DNA of 61,679 nt, counting the filler. It is 5 parts of 5 records of this genome, joined end to end, with 100 filler letters (N's around TTAATTAATTAA, not from the genome) between each part and the next. Parts side by side here need not be neighbours in the genome. Positions count along the whole stretch, not along the records: positions 1 to 17,180 come from SRR31156797_5212; 4 more parts are not named here. One strand, 5' to 3'. Every line of letters begins with the position of its first letter. Position 1 is the first letter of the stretch. The position numbers were made by a program, and so were the translations under genes. A model generated the notes under the pieces. It worked only from the letters and a program-made list of their open reading frames with translations, was not told where the DNA came from and did not search any database. Positions 1 through 39,723 of this stretch are shown piece after piece.

Positions 1-20
1 CCGAATAGTCGAAATGTCAG

Positions 21-59
21 GATGCTGACCGTAGCGTCAGCATCTCGTCCGGACCGCCA
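21..59 (+). other. Hairpin fused to a tRNA-3'-end-like fragment (possible att-site remnant)
   Basis: Perfect 9-bp stem GATGCTGAC(21-29)/GTCAGCATC(36-44), then TCGTCCGGACCGCCA (45-59), which resembles the 3' end plus CCA of Bacteroidota tRNA-Asp. No complete cloverleaf. Confidence 0.45.
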
Positions 60-60
60 A

Positions 61-110
61 CACAAAAAAAATTAGGCTGTTAGTCAATAGATTAACAGCC
101 TTTTTTTGTG
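61..110 (+). terminator. Intrinsic terminator-like hairpin
   Basis: AGGCTGTTAGTC-aata-GATTAACAGCCT followed by a T-run; the flanking CACAAAAAAA/TTTTTTTGTG can also pair. Confidence 0.7.
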
Positions 111-295
111 GGCGTTGCCGATGAACGTTGTTTAAAATCAAAAATCGAAAAAAACATGAATACGACAATTTCTGTAGCCTTATGGTTCATTTTGAGTTGT
201 TATTGATCAATAATTGCAAGCATTCTCAATCCCATAACACAACCCAACATTTCTTAAAAAACTGTTAAGTTTTTCATTTCATGTATCTAAATATT

Positions 296-303
296 TAGAT
301 TTG
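296..303 (+). promoter_or_regulatory. Bacteroidota -7 promoter element (TAnnTTTG)
   Basis: TAGATTTG ends 29 nt upstream of the ATG at 333. Confidence 0.55.
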
Positions 304-332
304 TAAGCTAATCATTCATTAAACTATTTAAC

Positions 333-2147
333 ATGAAGAAACTCGTTTACCTGACTTTGATGCTTCTTGCGTTTCAGGTTTCAGCGTTTTCCCAAACTGC
401 CATCATCGATGAGGATTTCTTTGATCCGTTGGTGGACTGGGAAATGGAAGGAAACTGGGGACAGGAAGATGGCTATCTGATGCTCTATTATTACCCGATT
501 ATCGAGGACTTCGATTTCTCAGCTCACACACCGGAATTTGTAGTTCCGGACAACGGCGGCGATGTTGTGTTTTCACTTTTTATTGATGTTTACCAGTCGA
601 ATACCACGGATGAAAAATGTGAAATCTCTGTAGTGTATGACGGCAACGAAGAGGTGCTTTGGACACATGAATTGACCGACGGCCCCTGGGGTGATTTTTC
701 AGGCTCCGACCTTACGCTATCGCTGGATGAATACGTTGGTGAAACCGTTAAACTGCGTATGCGTTCCTATGGTACTTCTACAAGTGCTTTGTGGGGCTGG
801 TTCGTTTTTAATGTTAACCTGACAACATGGTTCGATCATGAATTGTGTGCCATGGATATCTTTGGCCCAACCAATCTCGATATGGGTGAAACCGGCATGT
901 GGGAGATTGATATCAAAAATCAGGGACTGAATGCTGAAAATGATTTTGTGGTTAATCTTTACAGCCATAAGAAAGATCAAATCCTGGCTTCCGGTACTTA
1001 TGAAGGGAGTCTTGCTCCGGGTGAAACCGGTGTTGTGAATGTGGAATGGTCTGCCGAGGAATCGCATAATACCGTGCTTTATGCAAAGGTGGATTCACCA
1101 ACTGATGAATTTGAGTTTAACAACAATTCAACCGGAAGATTCCTAAGGGTTGAACCCGATTTGGAATACAATATCCTTTTCTGGGATAACGACAATGGCA
1201 TCTCATCCGTTGAGAATCCGGAAACTGGCATGATGCAGGAACCACACCAGGGCATTCAAAAAGCTTTTCAGGTGGCCGGCATCAACATAGATATGGTAAG
1301 TTCACTACCTGATAACCTGGAGGATTACCACATCGTGTTGACCACCATGGGGAATTACTGCCTGAGCTGAGGCCAGACCCCGCCCGGTACTGTATCTGAA
1401 ACAGACCAGGCAAAAATCCTTGACTACCTGCAAAATATGAATGGTAAACTTTATATCGAAAGCGTGAACCTTGGCATTGACCACCATGGAACAGATATGC
1501 TGGAAAGCTTTGGTGTAAAATTTATGGATGATGGCATAGAAGATGAATTTTACACCATCTCAGGTGTGAACGACACATTACTTTCTGAAGTAAATATTGA
1601 ATACGCCGGTGGAGATTCACCACGATTTAGCGTTGACCGTTTGGCAACAACCGACAGCGAAGAACTTTATCGCTCTGATGACGGTTTTGGCAGGATGTTC
1701 CTCAACGATCCGGGTGAATCCTACAAAGTGATCTCTTCATCTATGACCTTTGGTGCATTGCGTGATGGCGACAGCCTGAGCATGAAGCCTTATTTGCTGG
1801 CAGAGATGGTTGATTATTTTCTGGGGATTAATACCGTTACTGATATCAAAGAGGCTTTTGGCCAGATTGCTGATGTCAACACAACCGTATATCCAAATCC
1901 TGCTGTAACAAATACCACAATTCAATTCAATCTGCCTGAAAGTGGTGATGTTGATTTGATCATTTATGATGAACTTGGCCGTAGCATACAGATCATCGGG
2001 ATGGATAACATGATCTCTGGTAAACAAACCATAACCTGGGATTTGAAAGATGCCTCAGGCCAGATTGTACGTAACGGAATTTATTATTTCCAGCTTGTTT
2101 TTGATGGTCAAACAGGATCATCAGGAAAGATCATGGTAAACAGATAG
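333..2147 (+). CDS. Putative T9SS-secreted selenoprotein (604 aa, U346 in CxxU), reading through TGA 1368-1370
   Basis: ORF 333-1370 ends GNYCLS-TGA. The next 66 nt are open (GQTPPGTVSETDQAKILDYLQN) and run in frame into ORF 1437-2147. The signal peptide is only in the first part and the T9SS CTD (VYPNP...GIYYFQL...KIMV) only in the second. A CARDB-like Ig segment lies in between. Confidence 0.85.
1382..1411 (+). promoter_or_regulatory. Putative bacterial SECIS element
   Basis: Stem GCC-c-GGT-a-CTGT / loop ATCTGAA / ACAG-ACC-a-GGC, starting after an 11-nt spacer from the TGA. Confidence 0.65.
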
Positions 2148-2170
2148 ATTTTAAAGAAAATCTCAAATAT

Positions 2171-2209
2171 AAAAGCCCCGGTTACTAACGTTTCCGGGGT
2201 TTTGTTTTT
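2171..2209. terminator. Bidirectional intrinsic terminator
   Basis: AAAAGCCCCGG...CCGGGGTTTTGTTTTT between convergent genes. Confidence 0.7.
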
Positions 2210-3640
2210 CTAGGCCAGAAGCTCAGGGTACTCATGAGCCACCTTAATGATCAGTTCACCAAATAGCGTATTTGCCCATGCAAACCAACTCCGGGTAAAA
2301 TTAGACGCATCATCTTTATGGAAGCCTTCATGCATGAATCCTGTGCCGGCATGCGTGTTTTTAAGCATACCAAGACAGTGTGAAATTTCATTGGGGTCCA
2401 TGCTGGTCATGGCCCGCAGAATGATCCCCATTGGCCAGATCATTTCTTTTCCGGTGTGTGGGCTGCCCTGGCCGGTTGCAGCCTTTCCGGTTAGAAAATA
2501 TGGATTTGAATTACTCAACAAAAATTTTCGTGTGTTCAGATAAAGCTTATCCTCAGGTTTGTGAGCTCCGAGGTAGGCCAGTGACATCAGTGATGGTACA
2601 TTGGCATCATCCATAAAAAGATGGTTACCAAAGCCATCGGTTTCATAGGCATAAATTTTTCCATGTTCAGGGTGGTTGGCTATGCCGTGCAATTGAATAG
2701 CCATGTCGAGTTCATCAGCCAATTCCTGACATTTGTTGGCAAAAACAGCATCTCCGATTATTTCGCTGTAGATTTCATCAAGCTGACGGAGGGCGAGTAC
2801 TGCAAAAATATTGGATGGTATCAGGAAAGGAAACAGCGTTGCATCATCCGATGGCCGAAACATGGAGCAGATCAGGCCGTTCGGTTTTACAGGCCTGCCC
2901 GTTCCGTTAAAAACGGGAGCATCAATCATGCTGGTTGTTTTCCTTCTGAAATAGTAGGGCGATTCTCCGGTTTTCCGCTGTTCCGTAATGAAGGTATCAA
3001 CAATCAGTCGCATGGCTGTGTCCCAATGCGGATCAAAAATTGAAGTGTCCCCTGAAATTTTATAATAATGGTATGATAACCGCACTACATAACATAGCGA
3101 ATCGATTTCCCATTTTCGTTCATGTACACCTGGAACAGGCGTCGGTTCATCACTTTGCCAGTGGCTCTTCCGGGTAAGATCCTTGTAAAATGCATTGGCG
3201 TAGGGATCTTTCAAAACACATTTTACCTGCCTGTTCACAAGTCCGTTAACCAGCAGTTTTAATTGCTTATCTTCTCTGATGAGCGGCATATATGGCCAAA
3301 CCTGTGCGGTTGAATCACGCAGCCACATTGCATCAATATCGCCGGTGATGATAAATGTATCAGGCTTTCCATCAATCAACTCAAAATCAACCGTTGTATC
3401 CAGCGTGTTTGGGTAGCAGTTTTCAAACATCCACGCCAGTTCCTCATCTTTGATAACTGCTTTTATTTTTACTATCAATTGCTCTACACTTTCGCTAATA
3501 AATGTCCTGGAAGCTTTTTCCGGTCGGTTGCTGGCAAACTGATTGGGTAATGAAAATAAGATGTTTGCCGACAGGCTGGGGAGCACGGCTGAACCAAGCA
3601 GCGTTAGTCCATGCTTTTTCAGAAATGACCTTCGTTTCAT
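2210..3640 (-). CDS. Glycoside hydrolase family 125 (exo-alpha-1,6-mannosidase-like), Tat-like signal
   Basis: Motifs TGDIDAMWLRDS, ERKWEIDSL, FRPSDDA, MDDANVPSL, FTRSWFAWAN; N-terminal KRRSFLK. Confidence 0.92.
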   Translation of the reverse strand: MKRRSFLKKHGLTLLGSAVLPSLSANILFSLPNQFASNRPEKASRTFISESVEQLIVKIKAVIKDEELAWMFENCYPNTLDTTVDFELIDGKPDTFIITGDIDAMWLRDSTAQVWPYMPLIREDKQLKLLVNGLVNRQVKCVLKDPYANAFYKDLTRKSHWQSDEPTPVPGVHERKWEIDSLCYVVRLSYHYYKISGDTSIFDPHWDTAMRLIVDTFITEQRKTGESPYYFRRKTTSMIDAPVFNGTGRPVKPNGLICSMFRPSDDATLFPFLIPSNIFAVLALRQLDEIYSEIIGDAVFANKCQELADELDMAIQLHGIANHPEHGKIYAYETDGFGNHLFMDDANVPSLMSLAYLGAHKPEDKLYLNTRKFLLSNSNPYFLTGKAATGQGSPHTGKEMIWPMGIILRAMTSMDPNEISHCLGMLKNTHAGTGFMHEGFHKDDASNFTRSWFAWANTLFGELIIKVAHEYPELLA

Positions 3641-4284
3641 TAATTGGCAGTTTGAAGTATATATTTCAATCCCACCAATACGCCAAGCGAATTGGTTTTG
3701 GAGTCGCCCAACGTTTTGGAGAGGCCCAGGTTTTCTTTCAGGTCTATGCCCAACAAAAGCTGTTCGGAAAGGTCAATATTTAAGCCAATGCCAATTGAAA
3801 TGCCGAAATCCACGCTGTTCGTTTCGGAAGTAAAATCTTCCTTTTTGCCCGGTACCAGGTCGGTCTCTTCATAATAAACCATGTTGCTCAAAAGCAATCC
3901 AAAGAAAGGGCCTGCATTGGCATAAAAACTTGTTTTACCCGGCGTGTGGTAGGCAAAGAGTAGGGGCAGGATCAGGTAATTGTATTCGATGTCGATTTCC
4001 TGCTTTCCTAAAATAGCTCCTTCATTATCGGTAAGAATGATTTCGTCCTGAGCTCCTTTTTGTTCAAACATCAATCCCGACTTGATTCCCAGATATGGTG
4101 TAAAAATGTATTCGAAACTGGCTCCGGCTGCAAAACCAATTTTAGGATCTAATCCACTGTTCGATTCATTTCTGATGGATGTTAAAGAGGGGCCGGCATC
4201 AACACCAATAATATACTTTTTGTCCTGGGCGTAGAGTGAAAAGGTAAAAATGATGGCTAAAATGCTTGTAAAAACTGCTTTCAT
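3640..4284 (-). CDS. Outer-membrane beta-barrel protein (PorT/porin-like family)
   Basis: Signal peptide, alternating beta strands, NAGPFFGLLL and terminal VGLKY; TAATG overlap with the GH125 start. Confidence 0.75.
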   Translation of the reverse strand: MKAVFTSILAIIFTFSLYAQDKKYIIGVDAGPSLTSIRNESNSGLDPKIGFAAGASFEYIFTPYLGIKSGLMFEQKGAQDEIILTDNEGAILGKQEIDIEYNYLILPLLFAYHTPGKTSFYANAGPFFGLLLSNMVYYEETDLVPGKKEDFTSETNSVDFGISIGIGLNIDLSEQLLLGIDLKENLGLSKTLGDSKTNSLGVLVGLKYILQTAN

Positions 4285-4307
4285 AACAGGCTATATTTTG
4301 CTTTGCC

Positions 4308-4315
4308 CAAAAGTA
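4308..4315 (-). promoter_or_regulatory. Bacteroidota -7 promoter element
   Basis: TACTTTTG on the minus strand, 23 nt upstream of the ATG at 4284. Confidence 0.5.
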
Positions 4316-4420
4316 AATAAAAACAACTTAACAGTTGATAAATCAATACCAATGGTTGAATCAGCAGTGTGAATTTCTTTGGGTTGTATCCAGACTTATA
4401 TTAAATGACAAATCTATGCG

Positions 4421-5851
4421 CTACAATGCATTGATTTCGGCGATTAATTTCTGTATTGAATCCTTGGCATTGCCGAAGAGCATCCGGGTATTGTCTTTGA
4501 AGAAAAGTGGATTTTCAATGCCGGCGTACCCTTTTCCCATTCCGCGTTTCATCACGATAACATTTTTGGCTTCAGCGGCATTGATCACCGGCATGCCGTA
4601 AATGGGACTGCCGGGCGTATCGTTTGCAGCGGGGTTTACAACATCATTGGCGCCAACCACAATCACCACATCTGTACCAGCCATGTCTTTATTGATATCG
4701 TCCATCTCAATCAATTTATCGTATGAAACGTCAGCTTCAGCAAGCAATACATTCATATGGCCGGGCATGCGTCCGGCAACCGGGTGAATGCCAAAACGGA
4801 TGTTTACATCTTTGTCCACAAGAAGTTTTTCCAATTCATGAACGGTGTGTTGGGCCTGGGCTACGGCAAGTCCGTAACCGGGAACAATCACCACAGATTT
4901 TGAATACGCAAGCAGCACTGCCGCATCGCTAAGAGTAATCTCCTTGATGGTTCCCCCCTCTTCGCCTGCAGCACCGACACTTCCACCACCAAATCCGCCC
5001 AGGATCACACTGAGTAACGAACGGTTCATGGCTTTGCACATCAACAGGGTTAGGATTGAACCTGCCGCGCCTACAAATATACCACCCAGGATCATAGCGA
5101 GGTTGTGATATATGAAACCAGCCATTGCTGCAGCAATTCCGGTTAAAGAATTTAACAGTGAGATAACTACCGGCATATCTGCGCCTCCGATGGGGAAAAC
5201 GAAAAGAATTCCATAGATAATGGCTACAGCAAATAAAATATATACTAGCATGGCGTATTCCTGTGGAGCAGGTTGTAACAAAACATAAACGGCCATGCCA
5301 ATCAGCGCAATCAACAAAATGATATTGATGTATTTCATGATGCCTGCACTCAGGTTACCTACCTTTCCACTGAGTTTGCCATAGGCGATCATACTACCGC
5401 TGAATGCAATTGAGCCAATGATAAGCCCCAGAAGTGTTACCAGCAGTGATTCGTTTTCAGGATTCGAAAATTCAAGTAATCCCACAAGAGCAGATGCCGC
5501 CCCACCAGTTGCATTAAAAAATGAAACCAGTTCGGGCATGGCTGTCATTTTCACTTTTTTGGATATAATAAACCCAACTGCTCCCCCCACAGCTATGGTT
5601 GCCAGTATCACGATGATATTGGTAATCCCGATGCCGTTTCCGGCATCGTCTTTATGGAACAATAGGGTGGTGATCATGGCAAGCACCATACCTGCTGCTG
5701 CCCAAAAATTTCCTTTGCGTGCGGTTTCGGGGTGGCTCAAAAATTTGAGCCCAACCACAAACATGATAGCTGCCAAAAGGTAACTGAATTCAAGTACAGC
5801 AGCTCCAATGGTGAAATCCGATCCGTTGAATGTTTGTAAAATTCTTTCCAT
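4421..5851 (-). CDS. pntB: NAD(P) transhydrogenase subunit beta
   Basis: Multi-pass membrane domain; PIGGADMPVVISLLNS, VPGYGLAVAQAQH, HPVAGRMPGHMNVLLAEA, GANDVVNPAA. Confidence 0.97.
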   Translation of the reverse strand: MERILQTFNGSDFTIGAAVLEFSYLLAAIMFVVGLKFLSHPETARKGNFWAAAGMVLAMITTLLFHKDDAGNGIGITNIIVILATIAVGGAVGFIISKKVKMTAMPELVSFFNATGGAASALVGLLEFSNPENESLLVTLLGLIIGSIAFSGSMIAYGKLSGKVGNLSAGIMKYINIILLIALIGMAVYVLLQPAPQEYAMLVYILFAVAIIYGILFVFPIGGADMPVVISLLNSLTGIAAAMAGFIYHNLAMILGGIFVGAAGSILTLLMCKAMNRSLLSVILGGFGGGSVGAAGEEGGTIKEITLSDAAVLLAYSKSVVIVPGYGLAVAQAQHTVHELEKLLVDKDVNIRFGIHPVAGRMPGHMNVLLAEADVSYDKLIEMDDINKDMAGTDVVIVVGANDVVNPAANDTPGSPIYGMPVINAAEAKNVIVMKRGMGKGYAGIENPLFFKDNTRMLFGNAKDSIQKLIAEINAL

Positions 5852-5929
5852 CAGGAAAAGTATATCGTTAATTGTTATCTGTTATTCGTTGACCAAAACC
5901 CAAAATTTTAAATTCCTTGCTATAAACTC

Positions 5930-5971
5930 GCAATTCTAAAATCAAAATTCAAAATTCGTAATTCTGAAATC
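5930..5971. repeat. Degenerate heptamer tandem repeat (6 units)
   Basis: GCAATTC TAAAATC AAAATTC AAAATTC GTAATTC TGAAATC in the pntA2-pntB spacer. Confidence 0.6.
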
Positions 5972-5993
5972 GGAACGCTAAACTTTAAGCTTC

Positions 5994-6305
5994 CTATTTT
6001 TTCTTCCTGAACATATCCAGCATCCGATCCGTAACGGCAAATCCTCCGGCTACATTTAAAGTCCCGAAAAGCACAGCAAGAATGCCAAGCACCAGTTCAA
6101 TGGAAAAACCGCTTAAATCAGCGTGGCCAACAAGTATAATTCCACCAATGATAATGACGCCACTGATAGCATTCGCTCCGGACATCAATGGCGTGTGTAG
6201 CACAGAAGGAACATTAGAAATCACCTCGATGCCCAGGAAAATAGCCAGGATCATGATGAAGATTGGCTCGCGGAATGAATAGAAGAATATTAATATTTCG
6301 TCCAT
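5994..6305 (-). CDS. pntA: NAD(P) transhydrogenase subunit alpha, part 2 (membrane)
   Basis: VPSVLHTPLMSGANAISG and NVAGGFAVTDRMLDMF. Confidence 0.95.
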   Translation of the reverse strand: MDEILIFFYSFREPIFIMILAIFLGIEVISNVPSVLHTPLMSGANAISGVIIIGGIILVGHADLSGFSIELVLGILAVLFGTLNVAGGFAVTDRMLDMFRKKK

Positions 6306-6326
6306 AATTTTAAAAATTCAGGATAA

Positions 6327-7463
6327 TCAGGATTTATCTGATTCAATGACAGATTTTACCCTTTCATTGATGATTTCGTGTTTGTGGGTGATACATGCAC
6401 CTTTCACTACTTCATCCTCAAAATCAAGGTTCATTTCACCCTTTTCATTGATGATCAACTTCAGGAAATTGAGCATGTTTTTACCATACATCCGGCTTGC
6501 ATCCACAGGCATACCGGCAGGATAATTTGAGTTCCCGATGATCTTCACACCATTTTTAACCACAACTTCATCGTTTTTGGTAAGCTCGCAATTGCCACCC
6601 GTTGATGCCGCCAAATCCACAATCACCGATCCGGGTTTCATGTTTTCCACGGTTTGTTTTTTAATCAGAACCGGTGCTTTTCTTCCGGGTATTTGTGCGG
6701 TGCAGATTACCACATCCGATTTCAGGGCATGATCCTGAATCATCTGGCTCTGGCGCTTTTTAAATTCATCGGATTGTTCAACAGCGTAGCCACCTGCTGA
6801 TGCATCATCTTTGGCGCCTTCAACTTCTACAAATTTGGCACCCAGGCTCTGCACTTCTTCTTTCACTGCCGAACGCACATCAAAGGCCTCTACAACGGCA
6901 CCCAGTTTGCGGGCGGTGGCAATGGCCTGAAGCCCTGCAACACCAGCACCCAACACCAGCAACTTTGCCGGTTTTATTGTCCCAGCCGCCGACATAAACA
7001 TGGGGAAAAATTCCGGCAGGTTCAGCGCTGCATCTAAAACAGCCCGATATCCTGCAACAGTAGCCATCGACGAAAGTACATCCATGGCCTGGGCCCTGGT
7101 GATCCGTGGAATAGCATCAAGGCTAAAGGATGTGAATCCTTTTTCCTGTAGGTTCATAACCAGGGCTTTGTTACTCAATGGCCCCAACGTCCCAACAATT
7201 ACCTGGTCGGGTTTGAGTTTAGTGAGTTCTTCATCAGTAGGTGCGTTCACCTTCAAAATCAGAGATGCCTGCTTAAATATTTCGCTATCATCAACAACTT
7301 CAGCACCGGCATCAGAATAGGCTTTGTCGGAAGCAAATGCCAGATCACCGGCGTGTTTTGAGATCAGGATTTTGTTGTTGTTTTCGATGAGGACCTTTAA
7401 GGCCTCAGGAAGAAGTGCTACTCTTGTTTCGGGAAGCTGCTCTTTTAAAATGCCAATTGTCAT
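6327..7463 (-). CDS. pntA: NAD(P) transhydrogenase subunit alpha, part 1 (NAD-binding)
   Basis: ETRVAL, PRITRAQAMDVLSS, GAGVAGLQA, GGYA, TAQIPGRKAP. Start placed at MTIGILKE (7463). Confidence 0.95.
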   Translation of the reverse strand: MTIGILKEQLPETRVALLPEALKVLIENNNKILISKHAGDLAFASDKAYSDAGAEVVDDSEIFKQASLILKVNAPTDEELTKLKPDQVIVGTLGPLSNKALVMNLQEKGFTSFSLDAIPRITRAQAMDVLSSMATVAGYRAVLDAALNLPEFFPMFMSAAGTIKPAKLLVLGAGVAGLQAIATARKLGAVVEAFDVRSAVKEEVQSLGAKFVEVEGAKDDASAGGYAVEQSDEFKKRQSQMIQDHALKSDVVICTAQIPGRKAPVLIKKQTVENMKPGSVIVDLAASTGGNCELTKNDEVVVKNGVKIIGNSNYPAGMPVDASRMYGKNMLNFLKLIINEKGEMNLDFEDEVVKGACITHKHEIINERVKSVIESDKS

Positions 7464-7749
7464 TCTTTTGAACGTATTTGAACAACCAGAAGAAACAACC
7501 AATCGGTAAAGATGTTCAAATATCTAAAAATCACAATGTATTGATGTCAACTATTTACCTGGTTTTTGGACCGGGAGGAAAAATGTAAAACCCACTAAAA
7601 AAAGAGCTGTCAAATTTATTATTCTGAAATATTAACCGGTTTAAATCTTCTTAGGGAGATAGTTATTAGGAGGTAGCGCAGTTTTATGTGTATTCGTTGA
7701 AATAAAAAATGAGAATACAAATCGGGAGGCCTTTTTATCAGGACTATTT

Positions 7750-8745
7750 CTATAATTGCTCCTTTTTGTATTTCATCCAGCGTAATCGGATATTTTCCAT
7801 GAGATTATAATAAAAGAAACTATAATCATAAGCATGAAATACGCCACGCGGAAAGAACGAAACCCCAGGAGTGTAATAATCATCAGGATTAGGGACCGTA
7901 ACGATCAACGCACCATTTGCTCCTATTTCGGCATCGGTATATTTCGAGATTGTTTTACTTAAATTGTGGTTATCATCAAAAAATGCTGCACCAAGGTTAA
8001 GCTTACTCGAAGCATAGTCAGGGGAGGTGGTCCAAATTAACGGATTTACACATTTTGCACCAGGGAGCAATACTGGCGAACCTTGTGCATCCGGGGATTG
8101 CGTATTGTAGGTTATTATCACCCCAAGGTCATCTTTTTTCTGAGCAATTTTCATCCACGGATGTTTATTCAATTCCTCATCCGTTATGGAAAAACCAATG
8201 GTATATGCGGCAATTAACTGGTTAACCAGTTGCTTATTGTCAAACCTGTTTTTCATCAGCATTAACAACATATCGCTCCCCTGGCTATGGCCTGCAAGGA
8301 AAAACGGCCTGCCATTGTTCAGGTTTTTTATATAGTAATCAAAAGCATTTTCAACATCCTGATAGGCAATATCCAAATAGGGCTTTGATTCAGTGTCGCT
8401 CAGAGATAGTACTGCAATCGAAACCTGCCTGTAGTATGGAGCATACATGTTTGCAACCTCCGAAAAAACGCCTGTATGTTCTGTGGCTACTCCTTTTGCT
8501 TCATCTCGCAATTCATTATTTTGAAGATCCATAGTGGCCGGTTTATCACCAAAGAACACAGTTGGGTAAACGTAAAAAACATCACATCCGAATGTTTTAT
8601 CATCCATTGACTGAAATATCCAGTTTTCAGCATTTGAGTAATCCACGCCACTGAGGACATTCTCTTGTGACATAAGCCATTGTGGTTGGGAAAAATATAC
8701 CCACAACATACAGGCCAGTAAAAGGCATTGTTTCCAAATTTTCAT
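7750..8745 (-). CDS. DUF3089-type alpha/beta hydrolase, secreted
   Basis: DVFYVYPT, YAPYYRQ, nucleophile elbow GHSQG, HAYDYSFFY. Confidence 0.85.
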   Translation of the reverse strand: MKIWKQCLLLACMLWVYFSQPQWLMSQENVLSGVDYSNAENWIFQSMDDKTFGCDVFYVYPTVFFGDKPATMDLQNNELRDEAKGVATEHTGVFSEVANMYAPYYRQVSIAVLSLSDTESKPYLDIAYQDVENAFDYYIKNLNNGRPFFLAGHSQGSDMLLMLMKNRFDNKQLVNQLIAAYTIGFSITDEELNKHPWMKIAQKKDDLGVIITYNTQSPDAQGSPVLLPGAKCVNPLIWTTSPDYASSKLNLGAAFFDDNHNLSKTISKYTDAEIGANGALIVTVPNPDDYYTPGVSFFPRGVFHAYDYSFFYYNLMENIRLRWMKYKKEQL

Positions 8746-8764
8746 TGCTCAGATTGGTTGAAAT

Positions 8765-9232
8765 TTATAGAATCGCCACCAGGTCGATTTCGAAAATGAG
8801 AACGGTATTTGGGGGAACCGATCCGGACCCTAAAGTGCCATATCCCAGGGCTGAGGGTAAAAACAAAGTTATCGAGCCGCCCTCTTTAATCAACGGGATT
8901 CCATATTGCCATCCGGAAATCAGGTTTGCGAGCAAAAAAGAGATTGGTGCACCTGTGGTCTGGTCAAAAATGCTGCCATCGGTGAAATATCCTTTATAAA
9001 AAACTTCAACAGTCGAGCTAACTGTGGGGTTTTCTCCACTGCCTTGGTTGGTTATCAGGTAGTATAATCCCGATTCGTGTTTGGTTGCATTCACGTTATT
9101 GGCGTCCAGGTAATCCAGAATGATCTGTTCATCAATCTGGGCCTGTTTCTCTTCGTCATCGTCTTTTTTACAGCCCGGTACGATCAAAATTGTAACCATC
9201 ATCACCGCAAATAATCTCACCAAGTGTTTCAT
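8765..9232 (-). CDS. FKBP-type peptidyl-prolyl isomerase lipoprotein
   Basis: Lipobox Cys (PGC); SGLYY, YKGYFTDGSIFD, LISGW, PSALGYG, VPPNTVLIFEIDL. Confidence 0.93.
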   Translation of the reverse strand: MKHLVRLFAVMMVTILIVPGCKKDDDEEKQAQIDEQIILDYLDANNVNATKHESGLYYLITNQGSGENPTVSSTVEVFYKGYFTDGSIFDQTTGAPISFLLANLISGWQYGIPLIKEGGSITLFLPSALGYGTLGSGSVPPNTVLIFEIDLVAIL

Positions 9233-9312
9233 AAGCTATATACATTATCAGGATAAATATCCATTATGTTAATAAGCAGGCAAAAATAGATAAATAGACC
9301 GACCGTAAAAAT

Positions 9313-9348
9313 AAAAAAAGCTGCATCCCGGCATGGAAAGCAGCTTTA
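9313..9348 (-). terminator. Intrinsic terminator after the Omp28-like gene
   Basis: AAAGCTGC...GCAGCTTT stem with an A-run on the plus strand (U-tract on minus). Confidence 0.6.
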
Positions 9349-9371
9349 ATTTTAATAGTGTTCCGGTGAGA

Positions 9372-11390
9372 TTATCTCAGGATGCTAACTTTTTTATTTA
9401 GGATAGTTTGGTTATCAATGAGGATGTTGAGGAAATAAATTCCATCACCCAGGTAGCTGAGGTCGAGACTTCCTGCATCAAAATTATCATATTGGTTCAT
9501 TACCGCACCAGCAGTATTGTATACCACAATCTGTGCATCTTCAACACCGCTGATGATCACTTTTCCGGTTGTCGGGTTCGGGAAAACCTGAACTGCCTTA
9601 CCTGCATTTTCTTCAATATCAGTGTCGATATCAAAGGTGATGCTGTACGTATAATACGTTGCATGGTCTTCGGCAAAAACACTTACGGTAGTTGTTCCAG
9701 GCAGTGTATTGGCAGGAACAATAATCGGCATGGCATTGCCATTTGATGTAGTTACTGTAATTTCAGGCACTTCCACGGTTCCTTCTTCAAGCATAATGGT
9801 ATACTCAAAAACATCAGGGGAAAATCCTTCCAGATCATCACCATCGACCATGATCGAAGTTAGTTCTGCATCGTTGCTGTATTCAGCATCTTCCATGGTA
9901 TAACCTGACTGGAAAATGTACATGGAGCCCATATCCTGAACAATCACAGCTACCCCAAGGTCGTCCCATTCTTCCACATTGGTACCTGCCAGGTCAACAG
10001 TTTCCGAAATGGTAACAGGAACACGGTCTTCAAAATTCACCACTGTTCCAAAGGCATCAGGAACCATTTTCATCATTACATGTTCAAATTCTGTTTCACC
10101 GTTTGTGGATGCATTGTCCTCGGTCAAATATTCAAAAACCACGATATAAACTGAAGTATTTTCCATATTGGTAAATGGAACCATGCTCACTTCAATGTCC
10201 ATCACAGTACCCTCGAGGGTATGCGCCCCGGCCATACTTATTAGTCCGGGTTCTCCCATTGAAGCGTTATACATGGTCTGGATAGCTGCCATATTGTTGT
10301 CGGTATAGGTTCCGTCAAGATTTGTCCATGGCACCCAGCTTACACCATACATGTTTCTGCGGTCGCCGCCTTCCTGTGTGTAGTATGGGTCGCCAGCACC
10401 GGGCCAGTTCATCTGGTATTTTACAAGCGTGATGCTCTCATCATGGTCGTTGCACCAGGGAACAAAACTCGAATTAAAGGAGGCGCAAGGCGCACATGTT
10501 GAGCTGGTGAATTCCTCCAAACAGGGACGATGCTGCACAGTGTAGCTAACAAAGTTTACTGATTTTTCGAGCATGTTATTACCGGGGTCATCGTCTTCAC
10601 CACCATTCACAGTTTCGATATTGAGTGTAAGTGTATAGCTGCCGATGGGTAGGTCAATCAGCCCATCACATGTAAAATCATAGGATTCGCCAAAATCAAC
10701 TGACAATCCACTGAATGAAGTAGTTGTGGGTTGTCCGTCGTCGATTTTCCAACTTATCTCCGTGTCTGTAATAGTGGTTTCGCCAAGGTTTTTAAAGGCT
10801 CCGGTTACTTCGGTGGGCCCATTGAGATAGGTGTTTGTTGAAATTACAGAGAGTCTTGCATCATGATTTAATGGAACAAAGAGCCAGATATCATCAATGT
10901 ACCAATAGTCGAGATTATAGAAGTTTCCATTGATGAAAATGCGAAACTGGAAATCAGAAGCTCCAACATCATCATTTTCAATTACTACAGTAACGGTTTC
11001 AGGCCCAATATCTCCTGTTGGGTTTACCGACCAAACATCATTCCATGTACCACCGTTTGAACGCGTAGAAACACCCAGCGTGTAGCCTGATCCTGAATAA
11101 TCATCCAGAAAGTGGTTGAACTGAAAGCTTATTGATTCGAGTCCGGTGAGGTCGATCTCAGGGCTGATAAGGCTTGATGTGGAAATTCCGCTTGTGTAGC
11201 TGAACATGGCTTCCGGAGCCTGGCCACCGGCATTGTTTCCGGACTCAACCGACCACTGCGATGCATAGGCGTCTATGCTCCAATCGGTTGGAGGCATATT
11301 TCCATCGGTGAAGTCTTCGAGTAAGTAGGTCTGGCCTGATAAGAAAAGTCCCAGGCTCATGAGCATGGCAAATAGTAGTGGTTTTTTCAT
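9372..11390 (-). CDS. Omp28-related thioredoxin-like T9SS cargo protein (CxxC)
   Basis: Signal peptide; LEEFTSSTCAPC, KYQMNWPGAGDPYY, GETEFEHVMMKMVPD; C-terminal VFPNP...GIYFL CTD. Confidence 0.85.
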   Translation of the reverse strand: MKKPLLFAMLMSLGLFLSGQTYLLEDFTDGNMPPTDWSIDAYASQWSVESGNNAGGQAPEAMFSYTSGISTSSLISPEIDLTGLESISFQFNHFLDDYSGSGYTLGVSTRSNGGTWNDVWSVNPTGDIGPETVTVVIENDDVGASDFQFRIFINGNFYNLDYWYIDDIWLFVPLNHDARLSVISTNTYLNGPTEVTGAFKNLGETTITDTEISWKIDDGQPTTTSFSGLSVDFGESYDFTCDGLIDLPIGSYTLTLNIETVNGGEDDDPGNNMLEKSVNFVSYTVQHRPCLEEFTSSTCAPCASFNSSFVPWCNDHDESITLVKYQMNWPGAGDPYYTQEGGDRRNMYGVSWVPWTNLDGTYTDNNMAAIQTMYNASMGEPGLISMAGAHTLEGTVMDIEVSMVPFTNMENTSVYIVVFEYLTEDNASTNGETEFEHVMMKMVPDAFGTVVNFEDRVPVTISETVDLAGTNVEEWDDLGVAVIVQDMGSMYIFQSGYTMEDAEYSNDAELTSIMVDGDDLEGFSPDVFEYTIMLEEGTVEVPEITVTTSNGNAMPIIVPANTLPGTTTVSVFAEDHATYYTYSITFDIDTDIEENAGKAVQVFPNPTTGKVIISGVEDAQIVVYNTAGAVMNQYDNFDAGSLDLSYLGDGIYFLNILIDNQTILNKKVSILR

Positions 11391-11440
11391 AAAAATTTGA
11401 AGTTTTTGTTATTTGAAAAGTTAAATAGAAAAATACTTTG

Positions 11441-11448
11441 CAAAAGTA
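11441..11448 (-). promoter_or_regulatory. Bacteroidota -7 promoter element
   Basis: TACTTTTG on the minus strand, 50 nt upstream of the Omp28-like ATG. Confidence 0.5.
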
Positions 11449-11690
11449 ATGGATTAGGACTTCCTAAAAAAATTTAAAAAGAAATTATTTATAGAAAAGT
11501 AATTTTGAAAGTGAGGTTAATTTGCCAAAAAATGAAACATAGGTAAATATGTATAAATCGAATAGATAACGCGCAGATATACAACAAGATATTGGCAATC
11601 TATTTTAAGAAATTTGGATTTGATGTTCTTGTTTTTATTCAATTTTCCGCACCAAATACGCTACGTATCAGACTTTTCAGGAAGCCCTGC

Positions 11691-12392
11691 TTATCTGTTG
11701 AGATATTCCAACAAAGCCCTTTTGATCTCCACATTCCGGGTTTTAACAATTTGTGAGAGCTTATCTACGGTGAGGTCAAGGTATTTTTGGGGAAGGTCCT
11801 TCAATTCATGGTAGCTCATCCTGTTGTTTAGTCTCAAATCTGTTAAGATATACTGGTCGTGGTTACGGTTGATTTTCACCTGCTCGTAAGTCTGTGTATC
11901 AAAAATATAATAGCCTACAAACGAAAACATGCTCACCGCATCCGGATATTTTGAGTAGGTGCCTACACCGTATTGTTTTCCATTCAGAAAACGATGGCTG
12001 ATCTTGTTTTCGGGTTCAAACTTTCTGAGAATGATCACCACAAAATCGATGTTCTCTTTTCCATGAAGTGTATCAAACCATGCTATCATATCCTTCGTGG
12101 GTTTCCCGACAAAGTTGAGCAGGGCCATCCGGTTAAGTTTTGGAGAGGGAGGCGCATTTGTTACAGCAATGTTGGCAGCCGTTAAAATATTTTGGAGGCC
12201 TGATGTGGTTTCGTGGTAGTAGTTAAAAACATCCTTCTCAAAAGTTGTCGAATACCAGCGGTTGCCATAAATGTGTGAAAGTACTGTATCAGCAAGGTTT
12301 ACCACAGCAACCTTAGCCCTTGGTGCCGGGGTTTGCGCCGACAGGATGCCAGATAATTGAAGCAGTGCTATGAGAATGAAAATTTTTTTCAT
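11691..12392 (-). CDS. Secreted hypothetical protein
   Basis: 233-aa ORF with a typical MKKIFILIALL...LSA signal peptide; no family recognised. Confidence 0.75.
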   Translation of the reverse strand: MKKIFILIALLQLSGILSAQTPAPRAKVAVVNLADTVLSHIYGNRWYSTTFEKDVFNYYHETTSGLQNILTAANIAVTNAPPSPKLNRMALLNFVGKPTKDMIAWFDTLHGKENIDFVVIILRKFEPENKISHRFLNGKQYGVGTYSKYPDAVSMFSFVGYYIFDTQTYEQVKINRNHDQYILTDLRLNNRMSYHELKDLPQKYLDLTVDKLSQIVKTRNVEIKRALLEYLNR

Positions 12393-12686
12393 GAATTCGA
12401 TTGAAAAATTGAATCTGCAAAATTACAGAATCAGTTAAGGCTGGTAACGTTAGCTCACGGTTTAATTGTCGAAATCTATTTGACAAATCCTTGCAATTCA
12501 ACAACAAATATCATATGCTCCGGGTACTCCCGGGTTTATCATCCATGCTGCACCGGAAAAACCCAAAAGTGTGTTAAAAATGGGGGTGAACAATGCAACC
12601 ATTGCATTGTTTAGAATCGTTAAAAATAAGTATCACTTTTATTAACCAATCTCAATTTACTGAAAAACAATTAATACGAACCAATT

Positions 12687-14267
12687 ATGAAGCGGATTTC
12701 ACTACTAATTTTACTTGTTACACTATTTTATTTTTCAAATGCTCAAAATGATGTTGAACAACTCGGACATCTTTCTTATAGTCAGGAGCTCAGCGATGTT
12801 TGGGGTTATGTTGACGAAGAAGGCAACGAATATGCACTTGTAGGCGTTTACGACGGATTTTCTGTTGTGGATGTAACTGATCCTTCAAATCCTGAAGAGG
12901 TTTATTTTGAGTCCGGCCCTCAATCCATATGGCGCGACATGAAGACATGGGGGGACTATGCGTATGTTTCCAACGAATCTTATGATGGTATTTTAATCGT
13001 CGACCTGAGCCCATTACCCGACGGGCCAATAACCACATCTACAAATTATTTTGGCAGTAATTATGGCTTCGAGAGTGCACATAACCTCTATATCGATGAA
13101 TTTGGCAAGCTCTACATTTTTGGGGCAGATAATGGCTCCGGTGGTGCTATAATTTGTGATGTTTCCGAATCACCGATGGAGCCACAGGAACTTGGTCGTT
13201 TTAATGATTTTTATTTACACGATGGAATGGCTCGTGGCGACACACTTTGGGGGGCAGGTATCTACCAGGGTGTGCTGGCGGCCATTGATGTTTCAAATCC
13301 GGCAAATCCTTCTATCATGGGAACTGTAAGTACTCCAGGGCAATTTGCCCACAACTGCTGGGTTTCAGATGATGGAACGCATGTTTTTACCACCGATGAG
13401 ATCAGCGATGGATATATTGGCGCTTTTAATGTTGAAGACCTTGGCAATATGTTTGAAACCGACCGCATCCAGTCAAGTCCCGGCGATGACGTTATTCCAC
13501 ATAATGTACATGTACGAAATAATTTCCTGATTACGTCCTATTACACAGATGGCGTTGTGATTCACGATGCCATCAACCCCGAAAACATCACAGAGGTTGG
13601 TAGTTACGATACTTCTCCTAACTTTTCCGGCCCCGGGTTTAGTGGTTCATGGGGAGCGTATCCGTTTTTACCCAGTGGGAATATTCTTGTTTCTGATATT
13701 GAGGAAGGACTTTATGTACTTGGATTTGATTTTGTGCGTGCAGCATTTGTGCAGGGAACCGTAATGGACAGTGTTTCAGGAGATCCACTTTTTGCCGTGA
13801 ATGTTGATGTGCTTGATACAGAGCTATCCACCCAAACCTTGTTTGATGGCAGTTTTGAGTTTGCTGCAACAATCACCGGAACTTTTGATATTCAGTTCAC
13901 GAAAACCTCATACGAAACCAAAGTGATCGAAAATGTTACGTTTGTTCAGGGTGAAGTTCAGGAACTTGAAGTAGAGCTGGTAAACGCGCTTTCTGTTTCA
14001 ATACAGGAACAGGAATTGGAAAATAGTATCGCCGTATTTCCAAACCCAACAAAAGCAGCTTTTAACCTGAATTATAATGATATTCCTTCAGCAAACGGGA
14101 ATGTAAATTTCACCGTTTACAGCGTAATCGGAAATATAATTGATGAGTTTATCCTGAATGGTTTTTCCGGAACAACCAGTTTTGGCGAAAAGTACCAGCC
14201 TGGAGTTTATTTCCTGCACATCGATAATGGTATGTCGAAAGATGTACGCCGGATTATAAAAGAATAA
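12687..14267 (+). CDS. Choice-of-anchor B / LVIVD-repeat beta-propeller T9SS cargo protein
   Basis: SDVWGY...EYALVG, WRDMKT, AHNCW, TTDE, HNVHV, WGAYPFLPSG; carboxypeptidase-regulatory-like domain; VFPNP CTD. Confidence 0.85.
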   Translation: MKRISLLILLVTLFYFSNAQNDVEQLGHLSYSQELSDVWGYVDEEGNEYALVGVYDGFSVVDVTDPSNPEEVYFESGPQSIWRDMKTWGDYAYVSNESYDGILIVDLSPLPDGPITTSTNYFGSNYGFESAHNLYIDEFGKLYIFGADNGSGGAIICDVSESPMEPQELGRFNDFYLHDGMARGDTLWGAGIYQGVLAAIDVSNPANPSIMGTVSTPGQFAHNCWVSDDGTHVFTTDEISDGYIGAFNVEDLGNMFETDRIQSSPGDDVIPHNVHVRNNFLITSYYTDGVVIHDAINPENITEVGSYDTSPNFSGPGFSGSWGAYPFLPSGNILVSDIEEGLYVLGFDFVRAAFVQGTVMDSVSGDPLFAVNVDVLDTELSTQTLFDGSFEFAATITGTFDIQFTKTSYETKVIENVTFVQGEVQELEVELVNALSVSIQEQELENSIAVFPNPTKAAFNLNYNDIPSANGNVNFTVYSVIGNIIDEFILNGFSGTTSFGEKYQPGVYFLHIDNGMSKDVRRIIKE

Positions 14268-14280
14268 TTGCTAACCTGAT

Positions 14281-14322
14281 AAAATAAAGGCTCTGCAGAT
14301 ATTGCAGGGCCTTTTTTATTTT
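14281..14322. terminator. Bidirectional intrinsic terminator
   Basis: AAAGGCTCTGCA-gatat-TGCAGGGCCTTTTTT between convergent genes. Confidence 0.75.
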
Positions 14323-14645
14323 GGGGGTAACGACATCACATATTCATAGCTTTCGTTGAGCAGTTTAATAAGTTTTTCCTGGTTGTCCAAAAGGTTTTCC
14401 GGGATAAGTACATAACCCTTCATTACAGCTCCATAAGATTTGAAGTTTGTGGTATGGAGCTCCACAAAATACTTTTCCTGAACTTCCTTTGAAAACCTGA
14501 TCCCAAGTTGGCCATCTTTATTGAGTTGCGAAAACATATGGCCGTTTGCCGATGTGTAGGGCATGGTTTTTCCTTTGCGTTCAAATTGTGGGCACATGCT
14601 CACTATTTCATCATATAAAGCCAGTATTTTTTTCCTTGATTCCAT
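14316..14645 (-). CDS. Small conserved hypothetical protein (TfoX/YjbR-like)
   Basis: RKGKTMPYTSANGHMFS, YGAVMKGYV, ESYEYVMSLPPK. Confidence 0.7.
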   Translation of the reverse strand: MESRKKILALYDEIVSMCPQFERKGKTMPYTSANGHMFSQLNKDGQLGIRFSKEVQEKYFVELHTTNFKSYGAVMKGYVLIPENLLDNQEKLIKLLNESYEYVMSLPPK

Positions 14646-14835
14646 TATTGCACGTTTTATTAATTGGGGGTTGGAGTTTATTATTTAATTCTTGAATTGA
14701 CTCTTCAGTTTTAGCAGATCAATAAAAAAAGCAAAACACACATTTTTTGATAATTTGGTCATACAATTCCTTTTGAAATTGATTTATATGATTTGTGTTC
14801 AAATGATTAGCAACGACAACTATTTGAAATTTTAA

Positions 14836-15645
14836 TTAATTAAAATAATCTGAGTATGTTTCCCCATCCTGAAAAAACTGTTTTGGCGATGATCCTGTAA
14901 ACTGTTTGAAATCATTAATCATATGTGGTTGGTCATAATATCCACAATGATAGGAAAGAGCGGTCAGGTTCATTTCTTTATTTATAGCTTTTGCATAAAT
15001 AGCACTCTGAAACCGGATAACTTTTTGGAATTGTTTTGGAGTTGCCCCGACATGTTTTAAGAATACCCGCTCAAACTGCTTCCTGCTCAGGCATGCCCGG
15101 GATGCAAGTTTTTCTACTGAAATATTTCCCCTGGTTGAATTTATTAGGTTTATACTTGTCGAAATCCTTGCCCTGTCTGTTTCATCAACATCTAAATCCA
15201 GCAACTTCAATAGGAACGTCTCAGTTATCCTGATTCTTTCATGAAAACTTACTGCCTCAAATAATTTTGACTCGAGGTTATTTGTCATCAAACCATCTAA
15301 ATTGTTTAATGCAATCTGTTTGTTATATAATTCATGGATAGGAAATTTGAAAAAAGCAGCCAACGCGGTTGGTTGAAAAAGGATTGAAAATATGGAAATT
15401 TTTCCCCTGAGATTAAGATCAGTATAACCATTCATCTGACCAGACAGAAATAAGCTATTATTTGCTGATCCGGAGAGGTTTGGATTTTTGGGATTGTTGC
15501 CAAAGTAAAATGTAAGTTCAGGCAGCCCGTGTGGTACTATGCGTTGCGTATGTTCCAGCCCATTTGTGGTACAACTATTAATAGCCCAGTATTGCTTTAC
15601 AAAAGCGGCTAATTTTGTTGATGGTCCGGAAATTTCTAATTTCAT
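14836..15645 (-). CDS. AraC-family transcriptional regulator (DUF6597-type N-terminus)
   Basis: C-terminal double HTH (LSRKQFERVF...GYYDQPHMINDFK). Start placed at MKLEISGP (15645). Confidence 0.9.
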   Translation of the reverse strand: MKLEISGPSTKLAAFVKQYWAINSCTTNGLEHTQRIVPHGLPELTFYFGNNPKNPNLSGSANNSLFLSGQMNGYTDLNLRGKISIFSILFQPTALAAFFKFPIHELYNKQIALNNLDGLMTNNLESKLFEAVSFHERIRITETFLLKLLDLDVDETDRARISTSINLINSTRGNISVEKLASRACLSRKQFERVFLKHVGATPKQFQKVIRFQSAIYAKAINKEMNLTALSYHCGYYDQPHMINDFKQFTGSSPKQFFQDGETYSDYFN

Positions 15646-15729
15646 CCTGTTTGGAATTGCAGTACAAAAATCTAAATAAATTGAAAACAGGAGGCTGAAT
15701 TTTTTAATGCTCAACCTCCCGACCCATCG

Positions 15730-16089
15730 CTATTGATCACCATACAGTCCAACCTTATTTCCTTCGCTGTCGTGTATCAGGGCAAAATATCCCCTGCCTT
15801 CAGCTTCAATTTTTGTTTTGGGCCGGATCAATTTCCCATGGTTTTTTATGACCCGTTTTATGGCGCCATCCAGATCCTTTTCAAGGTTAAAGCTTACCAG
15901 GACTCCATCGGCTGATGGTTTGAAATCCGGAGCAAAAGAGATTGCCCCTTCATCATTTGGAAAACAGGCCATTTTTTCCTCGCCAAAGTCCAGTATATTG
16001 AGTTCAACATTTAAAACATTGGTGTAAAATGCTACTGCCCTTTCAAAATTGGTAGCCGGTACTTCTACCCATGCAATTAACTTTTTCAT
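15730..16089 (-). CDS. VOC / glyoxalase-family protein
   Basis: WVEVPATNFERAVAFY and GYFALIHDSEGNKVGL. Confidence 0.9.
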   Translation of the reverse strand: MKKLIAWVEVPATNFERAVAFYTNVLNVELNILDFGEEKMACFPNDEGAISFAPDFKPSADGVLVSFNLEKDLDGAIKRVIKNHGKLIRPKTKIEAEGRGYFALIHDSEGNKVGLYGDQ

Positions 16090-16215
16090 CGATTTGTGAT
16101 TTGATTAATAAAAGAATATTGCTGCAAAAGTATTTACCACATAATCCATAAACTTGGAAAATTGCGACATCTTGGTTTCCAACCCCACCAAAAATTCAAC
16201 TGCAGATTTTTGATA

Positions 16216-16989
16216 CTACTTTCCTGCAATCACAAGCATCTCAAAATCTTTGATGGTTAGTTTGTCATTTCGTGAAAAAGCACCCAGGGTTGCGCCAAAC
16301 ATCTCGATGCTCTTAAACCCCAGTGTTTTCAGCAGCCAGGTAATTTCGCTGGGGACATAGTACCGTTCGTTGCATTCAAGCCTGATCTTTTTCCCGTCGT
16401 CGTCTTCAATCTCTGTGACGTTGTGATCGCGAAAGGTCATCAAATCAAACTTATTATCATGATAATTTGCATTGCCCTCAGCATTGCCGGCATTGGTAAA
16501 TTCCTCTACCGAATTATGAATTGGGAAGAGTCCGTTGAGCGTGGTAAAAATAAATTTGCACTTTGGTTTCAATGATTTGGTAACACTTTTCAGGATTTCG
16601 AAATTCATTTCATCGGTTTCCATCAGGGGGAAGCCACCTTCACAAAGCATGATAGCCACATCAAATTCTTCATTGAAAGGCAGGCTGCGGGCATCTGCAC
16701 GGACGAAGTCAATAGAAAGGTTTTCAGCACTTGCTTTTTGCCTGGCCCTTTCCAGTTGATTTTCCGAGAGGTCTACGCCGGTGACCGGGTATCCGCGTTT
16801 GGTCATTTCAATGCTATGTCTGCCTGTTCCACAACCTACATCCAGAATTTTCAATTTTTTATTGTGGGTGAGTTCCTTTTCCAGAAAATCACATTCACCC
16901 ATTGTTCCCCGGGTAAAGGTTTCATTGTCGTATTGTTCGGCATAATTCTCAAACAACTTTTCGTACCATTGTTTTTTCTGATCGCTCAT
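16216..16989 (-). CDS. Class I SAM-dependent methyltransferase
   Basis: ILDVGCGTGRH, VTGVDLS, ADARSLPF. Confidence 0.92.
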   Translation of the reverse strand: MSDQKKQWYEKLFENYAEQYDNETFTRGTMGECDFLEKELTHNKKLKILDVGCGTGRHSIEMTKRGYPVTGVDLSENQLERARQKASAENLSIDFVRADARSLPFNEEFDVAIMLCEGGFPLMETDEMNFEILKSVTKSLKPKCKFIFTTLNGLFPIHNSVEEFTNAGNAEGNANYHDNKFDLMTFRDHNVTEIEDDDGKKIRLECNERYYVPSEITWLLKTLGFKSIEMFGATLGAFSRNDKLTIKDFEMLVIAGK

Positions 16990-27679: not shown

Positions 27680-27695
27680 GTTTCAATTACTAATT

Positions 27696-27732: not shown

Positions 27733-27745
27733 ATATTAAAAATTA

Positions 27746-39720: not shown

Positions 39721-39723
39721 TAA

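Follow-up and report, generated by a model that had tools for sequence, protein, structure and literature searches.

The window analysed here, a stretch of DNA of 61,679 nt, carries near its start a plus-strand gene (333-2147; 604 codons and a TAG stop in the fused reading of the frame) that very probably encodes one selenoprotein of 604 residues secreted by the type IX secretion system (T9SS), with UGA codon 346 read as selenocysteine (Sec, U) by way of a hairpin at 1382-1411. The host is an anaerobic Bacteroidales bacterium and the product a predicted cell-surface protein. Read directly from the window, the first open reading frame (ORF; 333-1370) ends in TGC (1359-1361)-CTG-AGC-TGA (1368-1370), corresponding to C343-L-S-U346. 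After this TGA, 22 open codons lead to an ATG at 1437 and the same frame runs on to a TAG at 2145-2147, giving a fused product of 604 residues with U at position 346, in agreement with the original prediction that a CxxU read-through joins two ORFs at this locus. Among the 54 ORFs whose stops were called in the window, 34 end in TAA, 10 in TGA and 10 in TAG; in the other nine TGA-ending ORFs the next in-frame stop follows 2-52 codons past the TGA, compared to 258 codons for the selenoprotein gene, and the long open frame past TGA 1368-1370 is not chance. The TGA is also a real base call, as a second contig assembly from a public sequencing run was identical across the whole gene (word depth 347). 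This excludes an assembly slip and is not independent support, because the run may be the source sample. That run gave the one full match among the public sequencing runs, in which no RNA run carrying the gene was listed, and a further run matched the gene ends only, at a likeness below 90%.

The fused protein has the parts expected of T9SS cargo, distributed over both sides of the TGA. A putative signal peptide (residues 1-20; 333-392, plus strand), recognised by sequence features, shows typical n, h and c regions (MKK, a hydrophobic core and AFS/Q) with putative cleavage before Q21; among 22 homologues M1 and Q21 are invariant and T22 nearly so. It is followed by an all-beta sandwich (393-842, plus strand) resembling MAM, cleaved-adhesin and carbohydrate-binding module (CBM) domains. 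An AlphaFold2 model of window positions 390-857 (approximately residues 20-175) folded as such a sandwich with a predicted local distance difference test score (pLDDT) of 91.4, and Foldseek matched it to the meprin MAM domain, the cleaved-adhesin domains of Lys-gingipain (Kgp) and CBMs at template-modelling (TM) scores of 0.5-0.69. Next come a CARDB immunoglobulin (Ig)-like domain (residues 177-258; 861-1106, plus strand; PF07705, 29.5 bits against a cut-off of 22.7), an alpha/beta domain that spans the TGA (1146-1835, plus strand) and a T9SS type A C-terminal sorting domain (residues 519-603; 1887-2141, plus strand; TIGR04183, 36.2 bits against a cut-off of 23). The sorting-domain region also scored 26.2 with PF18962, just below its cut-off of 27, and 31.6 with FlgD_ig. 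The domain outline proposed from the bare sequence (jelly-roll-like, CARDB Ig, alpha/beta) thus matches the AlphaFold2, Foldseek and Pfam results, and the proposed division also stands, with the sole signal-peptide-like start in the N-terminal part and the sole T9SS domain in the C-terminal part of the fused protein. A PorU sortase was found above cut-off in all five carrier genomes searched. In one genome a second copy of the gene has two PorU-type sortase genes (G003:C5, 117876-125051 and 129913-130638) approximately 5 kb away. The window itself holds further T9SS cargo genes, encoding a choice-of-anchor J protein (9372-11390, minus strand), a choice-of-anchor B protein (12687-14267, plus strand) and an alpha-amylase-family enzyme (22968-25760, minus strand), the last within a SusC/SusD starch-utilisation locus (25814-33543).

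The alpha/beta domain resembles class I glutamine amidotransferases (GATase1) in its predicted fold. The AlphaFold2 model of residues 272-516 reached a pLDDT of 86.3 and a predicted TM score (pTM) of 0.87, with the blocks on either side of the Sec site at 92-97. In the VIA comparison the highest Z scores were to 2gk3 (16.3), 3rht (16.2) and the ThuA-like 4jqs (15.4), with middle domains of the GH42 type at 13.5-16 and true amidotransferases (1kxj, 2abw, 8rp0) at 12-13.3; Foldseek agrees with VIA on a GATase1-like fold. The GATase1-/ThuA-like proteins 2gk3, 3rht, 4jqs and 1t0b and the GH42 middle domain share this fold over 183-194 aligned residues (Z 13.5-16.3), but at an identity of only 10-13% and with no match at the sequence level, and neither CxxC nor CxxU is noted in them here. 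Residues 270-515 have no Pfam or NCBIfam match at E <= 1, and no Pfam GATase family matches the window protein at that threshold. A sequence profile search of the PDB gave a best E of 0.038, to an unrelated mitoribosomal protein, and a search of the ESM Atlas with a full-length homologue (P0004) gave best scores of 0.86-0.87, under the lead threshold of 0.9, which were not used. No thioredoxin-family model of Pfam or NCBIfam matched at E <= 1, and the fold matches listed were all of the flavodoxin-like GATase1 kind, absence from such a list not being proof.

Across 36 aligned domains W284, D287, P326, G340, C343, P351, L366, E376, D435 and R454 are invariant and U/C346 nearly so. In catalytic amidotransferases the nucleophile sits at the end of the fourth strand. 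In the strand order of the predicted model E376-S would occupy this elbow and the Cys/Sec pair would come one strand before it, so that C343-x-x-U346-G-x-T-P-P-G would form a family-specific inserted loop after the third strand, with E376 at the end of the fourth; the placement of loop and strands relies on the general amidotransferase topology and on the order of secondary structure in the model. Position 1437, the downstream ATG, maps to the interior of the fourth strand (K-L-Y-I-E-S), and a stand-alone C-terminal protein would therefore start in the core of the domain.

A word-seeded search over 5.8 billion proteins returned 38 matches, of which 37 (33-87% identity) stop exactly at ...G-x-Y-C-x-x. 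The 38th, P0004, is full length at 604 residues, holds C-V-G-C where the window has C-L-S-U, and is collinear with the window protein over residues 4-593 at 47% identity with no gaps. When 1.84 billion cluster representatives were searched exhaustively with HMMER, further N-terminal stumps emerged, along with many C-terminal pieces that start shortly past the Sec site. The C-x-x motif is the end of 56 of the 186 database proteins collected, and seven of the 186 read through the site, five with Cys, one with Trp and one with Glu. The five with CxxC at the Sec site (P0004, P0040, P0081, P0100 and P0166) are single chains of 595-604 residues. N-terminal pieces of approximately 345 aa and C-terminal pieces of 183-256 aa are called on the same contigs, the latter under the name 'T9SS type A sorting domain-containing protein' or with no name at all. 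These pieces and the 56 stumps confirm the suspicion that standard gene callers split the gene in two. One of the 37 matches (P0035, 511 residues) is chimeric, fusing the N-terminus of an acyl-CoA dehydrogenase to the selenoprotein, and has the same C-x-x end.

Among species-representative genomes a DNA-level scan found 33 loci, 32 of which carry the domain (L033 is a match to the tail only). With tandem pairs at L016 and L017 the 32 loci amount to 34 gene copies, and to 35 with the window. TGA occupies the Sec site (1368-1370 in the window, plus strand) in all 35 copies at a protein identity of 35-88%, and in none of them was it replaced by TAA or TAG, the finding that would have pointed to an ordinary stop. 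The frame stays open for 171-522 codons past the TGA across the 35 copies, and protein conservation runs straight on past it (G-x-T-P-P-G-T-V...), giving the conservation on both sides that the original prediction had anticipated. Cys343, the first residue of CxxU (codon TGC, 1359-1361, plus strand), is present in every one of the 36 domains aligned. Damage seems to have affected two copies, L031 being open for only 124 codons upstream of the TGA and L020 for only 171 codons downstream; three matches of the regular expression (L008:2496, L009:4147 and L018:426) were left out as short unrelated frames. In metagenome scans for DNA of the Cys form, the first alignment was too divergent and the second latched on to a generic T9SS tail motif. 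The sole useful locus of the 79 in the second scan, the other 78 being irrelevant, was a metagenome contig (L073) on which the domain stands directly after the signal peptide and reads C-G-G-TGA-G-W-T-P-P-D, adding a further TGA to the 35. Several genomes, including G008, G089, G127 and G003, hold two copies of the selenoprotein gene, and each copy has its own TGA and hairpin (in the tandem pairs, TGA at 1389 and 3319 in L016, and at 3973 and 5902 in L017).

Just past the TGA lies a hairpin (1382-1411, plus strand) resembling a selenocysteine insertion sequence (SECIS). It starts 11 nt past the TGA, its 7-nt apical loop begins 23 nt past the TGA, and its 30 nt form a 10-pair stem with two one-base bulges at -11.2 kcal/mol. 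Over the 35 copies standard pairs fill 90.3% of the pair cells, compared to 22.6-42.9% with the 3' partner slid by 1-3 columns, and 34 of the copies fold in the same register at or below -7.5 kcal/mol (mean -11.3). Synonymous-site entropy was compared at codons of four-fold or higher degeneracy over a 96-codon stretch (codons -62 to +33 around the TGA); it was 0.91 bits at codons +3 to +14 and 1.82 bits elsewhere (Mann-Whitney P = 7e-5), which indicates that the hairpin RNA itself is under selection. The support for the hairpin is conservation, not compensatory change. According to section 5 and the Fig. 2 legend of PMC13188914, the bacterial SECIS (bSECIS) model has an apical loop of 3-9 nt above a 4-16 bp upper stem, a UGA-to-loop distance of 16-37 nt and a minimum free energy of at most -7.5 kcal/mol, and the family hairpin lies within all four ranges. 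The model also asks for a G in the first two loop positions, and a subset of elements fail it (PMC13188914). The hairpin of L073 (AGAUCC-GGUC-GGAUCU), unrelated in sequence and with its loop 20 nt after the UGA, agrees with the model on all five features. An Rfam scan around the TGA gave only chance matches to small nucleolar and long non-coding RNAs, all far below gathering scores.

The gene occurs together with the Sec machinery. In the five carrier genomes searched selD, selB and selA were all above curated cut-offs, and among five closer relatives selA and selB were found in four and tRNA-Sec above cut-off in three, each time just upstream of selA; selA was thus present in nine of the ten gene-carrying genomes when both sets are combined. 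Absence calls are weak because all carriers are metagenome-assembled genomes. Co-occurrence was also assessed in 201 genomes sampled evenly from the order, seven of which gave a total of 11 strong matches to the domain profile (289-364 bits), every match having exactly one TGA. Of the 201 genomes 26 have selA, all seven carriers among them (Fisher P = 2.8e-7). The expectation that genomes with the TGA version also hold Sec machinery agrees with nine of the ten genomes and, for selA, with all seven carriers of the larger sample. The genes are also physically close: in 16 of the 32 loci the same strand carries selA no more than 3 kb downstream of the gene, with selB too in 13, ARAGORN (24 loci scanned) placed a tRNA-Sec gene ahead of selA and after the selenoprotein gene in 14 of these 16 loci, and selD follows selB by approximately 1 kb or less in four of the five carrier genomes first searched. 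These positions give a cluster order of gene-selC-selA-selB-selD. A tRNA-Asp(GTC) gene was seen just upstream of the selenoprotein gene in five of the 24 loci scanned (L002, 2756-2832; L012, 2748-2822; L013, 527-603; L014, 29-103; L017, 2627-2701).

Comparison with known selenoproteins did not place the protein in a described family. Like the bacterial CxxU and UxxC selenoproteins it has an in-frame UGA, Cys homologues, a hairpin just past the UGA and, judging from relatives, an apparent dependence on selA, selB, selC and selD; none of the families catalogued in Table 1 of PMC13188914 (2026; 119 families and subfamilies) has its architecture or fold, and that table holds no T9SS cargo, CARDB, ThuA-like or CxxU GATase1-like entry. 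No selenoprotein model of NCBIfam release 20.0 matched at E <= 1, and the NCBIfam matches were limited to the C-terminal Ig-like sorting region (approximately residues 498-603), where the models concerned were those of the T9SS tail, FlgD-type domains, PorU and T9SS peptidases. A literature search of titles and abstract beginnings returned nothing relevant on selenoproteins with T9SS, a C-terminal sorting domain, Lentimicrobium or secretion, and a term search of the accessible text of the deep-Sep paper (PMC12013277) found no secretion-related words. The FCYXU-type TonB receptor is likewise an extracytoplasmic selenoprotein with an aromatic-C-x-x-U motif, but it is a receptor barrel, not an alpha/beta domain; its hidden Markov model (HMM) does not match the window protein and gave nothing above cut-off in the five carrier genomes. 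A CTP-synthase-related amidotransferase selenoprotein belongs, by its name, to the same class I amidotransferase superfamily as the window domain, but its Sec lies in GxUxG, whereas that of the window protein lies in C-x-x-U-G, on a loop that would follow an earlier strand, and there is no HMM match. Because the catalogue table, the models and the titles and abstracts show no match, the protein appears to represent a new family in which Sec decoding follows the known mechanism. The suggestion that the family is uncharacterised accordingly holds within Pfam and NCBIfam, which have no model over the domain, and within that table. The unusual traits of the family are its predicted T9SS secretion, its amidotransferase-like scaffold and its place at the head of a sel cluster.

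Across many genomes of the order the domain profile also matched large stop-free ORFs (569-1745 residues, 58-92 bits). Within four regions that were retrieved, eight ORFs hold the domain, and the four that were scanned with Pfam are T9SS-secreted C25 (gingipain-like) or M14 peptidases. In these proteins the catalytic domain comes first. Ig-like or regulatory domains follow, CARDB in those of the C25 family and a carboxypeptidase regulatory-like domain in those of the M14 family, and then the alpha/beta domain, sometimes PKD, and the tail. No Pfam family covers the alpha/beta domain in the peptidases of the four regions (L115-L118). The peptidase domains share with the selenoprotein the L-P-x-D-L...Y...L-G-x-Y strand, the Y-x-E-G strand end and the position between Ig-like domains and the T9SS tail, but they have a 6-residue gap at x-U-G-x-T-P-P, carry no TGA and are joined to a peptidase. 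Because of this gap, the Cys/Sec loop appears to be an insertion on an accessory scaffold common in T9SS cargo. The peptidase genes often stand in tandem arrays (L115, 1853-4468, minus strand; L116, 2079-11844, minus strand; also L117 and L118). These relatives without Sec, together with the GATase-like fold and the linkage to selC-selA-selB-selD, go beyond what had been predicted.

Several observations weigh against the reading of 333-2147 as a Sec-decoded gene. P0091 has Trp at the Sec position, and P0147 has Glu there and also lacks the first Cys; the claim that homologues keep TGA or Cys consequently holds for all 35 gene copies and for the five uninterrupted Cys chains, and fails for these two proteins. 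The Trp of P0091 (residue 86) is possibly a TGA translated under code 4 by the source pipeline. The invariant G of the family hairpin stands at loop position 5 (NNN[U/C]GNA), outside the first two positions named by the bSECIS model of PMC13188914, and covariation is weak, with two-sided change in two pairs only, a result equalled by 128 of 500 shuffles. No selA follows the window gene or its closest relatives L001 and L002 (approximately 2,980 nt of flank each). ARAGORN found no tRNA in the window and NCBIfam annotation no sel gene among 52 window ORFs, and Sec competence is shown for relatives, not for the window's own genome. The case as a whole is built on sequences and a predicted structure, from which we infer Sec insertion, secretion and chemistry, and the results do not tell redox activity from metal binding.

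With these points counted, we still regard it as very unlikely that the TGA is a true stop between two genes, one for a 345-residue secreted protein and one for a 236-residue T9SS-tailed protein lacking a signal peptide. This is how public gene callers annotate the locus, and N- and C-terminal pieces do occur on the same contigs; but amino-acid conservation extends across the 22 codons that separate the first ATG from the TGA, the starts of the C-terminal pieces are inconsistent (lengths of 183-256 aa), the predicted fold crosses the TGA and places the ATG within a core strand, a T9SS tail is of no use on a chain that lacks a signal peptide, and the Cys homologues are unbroken chains of 595-604 residues. 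The Trp aligned at the site in P0091 would suit a TGA read as an ordinary amino acid (Trp or Gly, under codes 4 or 25), or a SECIS-independent read-through. There is very little room for such a recoding, as nine further window ORFs stop at TGA and meet another stop 2-52 codons later, five of the seven uninterrupted homologues have Cys, all seven carriers in the 201-genome sample are among its 26 selA-positive genomes, and the gene is physically linked to selC-selA-selB. The damage seen in L031 and L020 could be taken to suggest a pseudogene, or else a sequencing error, at the TGA of the window; we consider either barely conceivable, given the TGA in 35 of 35 copies at 35-88% identity and the identical second assembly at a depth of 347; to the extent that sequences can tell, the comparative data refute both.

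On the favoured reading as one secreted selenoprotein, SelB and tRNA-Sec would decode UGA346 as Sec under the direction of the hairpin at 1382-1411. The signal peptide would carry the chain over the inner membrane and be cleaved before the invariant Q21; in Bacteroidetes, mature N-termini that start with Q are usually converted to pyroglutamate. The C-terminal domain would then pass the chain to the T9SS for release or for anchoring on the cell surface, which would expose a reactive selenol/thiol pair outside the cell, on a loop that may be placed in the active-site crevice. There C343 and U346 may act as a selenenylsulfide redox couple on an extracellular substrate, a tentative assignment that we hold at slightly under an even chance. 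According to section 7 of PMC13188914, most uncharacterised CxxU and UxxC selenoproteins are considered redox proteins, which also counts against the alternative that the selenoprotein is real and C343/U346 form a metal or metalloid site for surface capture of selenium or of a toxic soft metal. We judge that alternative rather unlikely, if well worth keeping in view. In its favour, the gene heads a selA-selB cluster in 16 of the 32 loci with tRNA-Sec between in 14 and selD after selB in four of five genomes, the catalogue entries of PMC13188914 include several metal-binding selenoproteins with C/U pairs, and the scaffold domain plays an accessory, non-catalytic part in T9SS peptidases. The sel linkage, however, may merely reflect co-inheritance of the trait with its main client, and no conserved adjoining transporter or metal-handling gene was seen in the loci examined. 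A more speculative idea, which we think improbable, is that anaerobic Bacteroidales carry a mobile 'selenocysteine cassette' (gene-selC-selA-selB-selD) with the surface selenoprotein as its founding client, whose Cys/Sec pair would capture or reduce environmental selenium at the cell surface and so feed its own Sec synthesis.

Should the selenoprotein reading hold, the gene adds to the prokaryotic selenoproteome a family absent from Table 1 of PMC13188914 and would be, within the reach of the searches made, the first selenoprotein known as T9SS cargo. It would also expose a systematic annotation error, at least 56 database entries being N-terminal stumps and dozens of orphan C-terminal pieces being filed as 'T9SS sorting domain' proteins. 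The gene is present in seven of the 26 Sec-capable genomes of the order sample, and because of this carriage and its frequent association with the sel cluster it may be one reason why these anaerobes keep the Sec trait. The role of a selenol outside the bacterial cell thereby becomes a concrete question for study.

Around the gene, a possible Bacteroidetes-type -7 promoter element, TAGATTTG (296-303, plus strand), was read from the sequence approximately 30 nt before the start codon; the assignment goes by the TAnnTTTG consensus. A terminator-like hairpin at 74-101, found by the hairpin scan, appears to close a transcription unit upstream. The gene starts 332 nt from the contig end and its upstream neighbours are therefore not visible. 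Downstream of the stop codon a GC-rich, terminator-like hairpin with a T-run (2175-2209, plus strand), likewise read from the sequence, precedes a convergent gene; it is not in the scanner's list because its loop exceeds the scanner's limit of 8. The window consists of five contigs joined by artificial linkers of 44 N, TTAATTAATTAA and 44 N (17181-17280, 38740-38839, 47714-47813 and 54580-54679), and physical linkage to the gene is limited to positions 1-17180. Another part of the window (38788-41619, minus strand) holds a cluster of genes for a regulator of the ArsR type, for ArsF- and ArsG-like proteins (the latter a permease) and for an SO_0444/SaoE-like efflux permease, and the SO_0444 family is among the selenoprotein families (UxC) listed in PMC13188914. 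Three ORFs are cut at linkers, namely an mmdA fragment (17345-17719), a GH65 ORF (37471-38787) and the SO_0444/SaoE-like permease (38788-39720).

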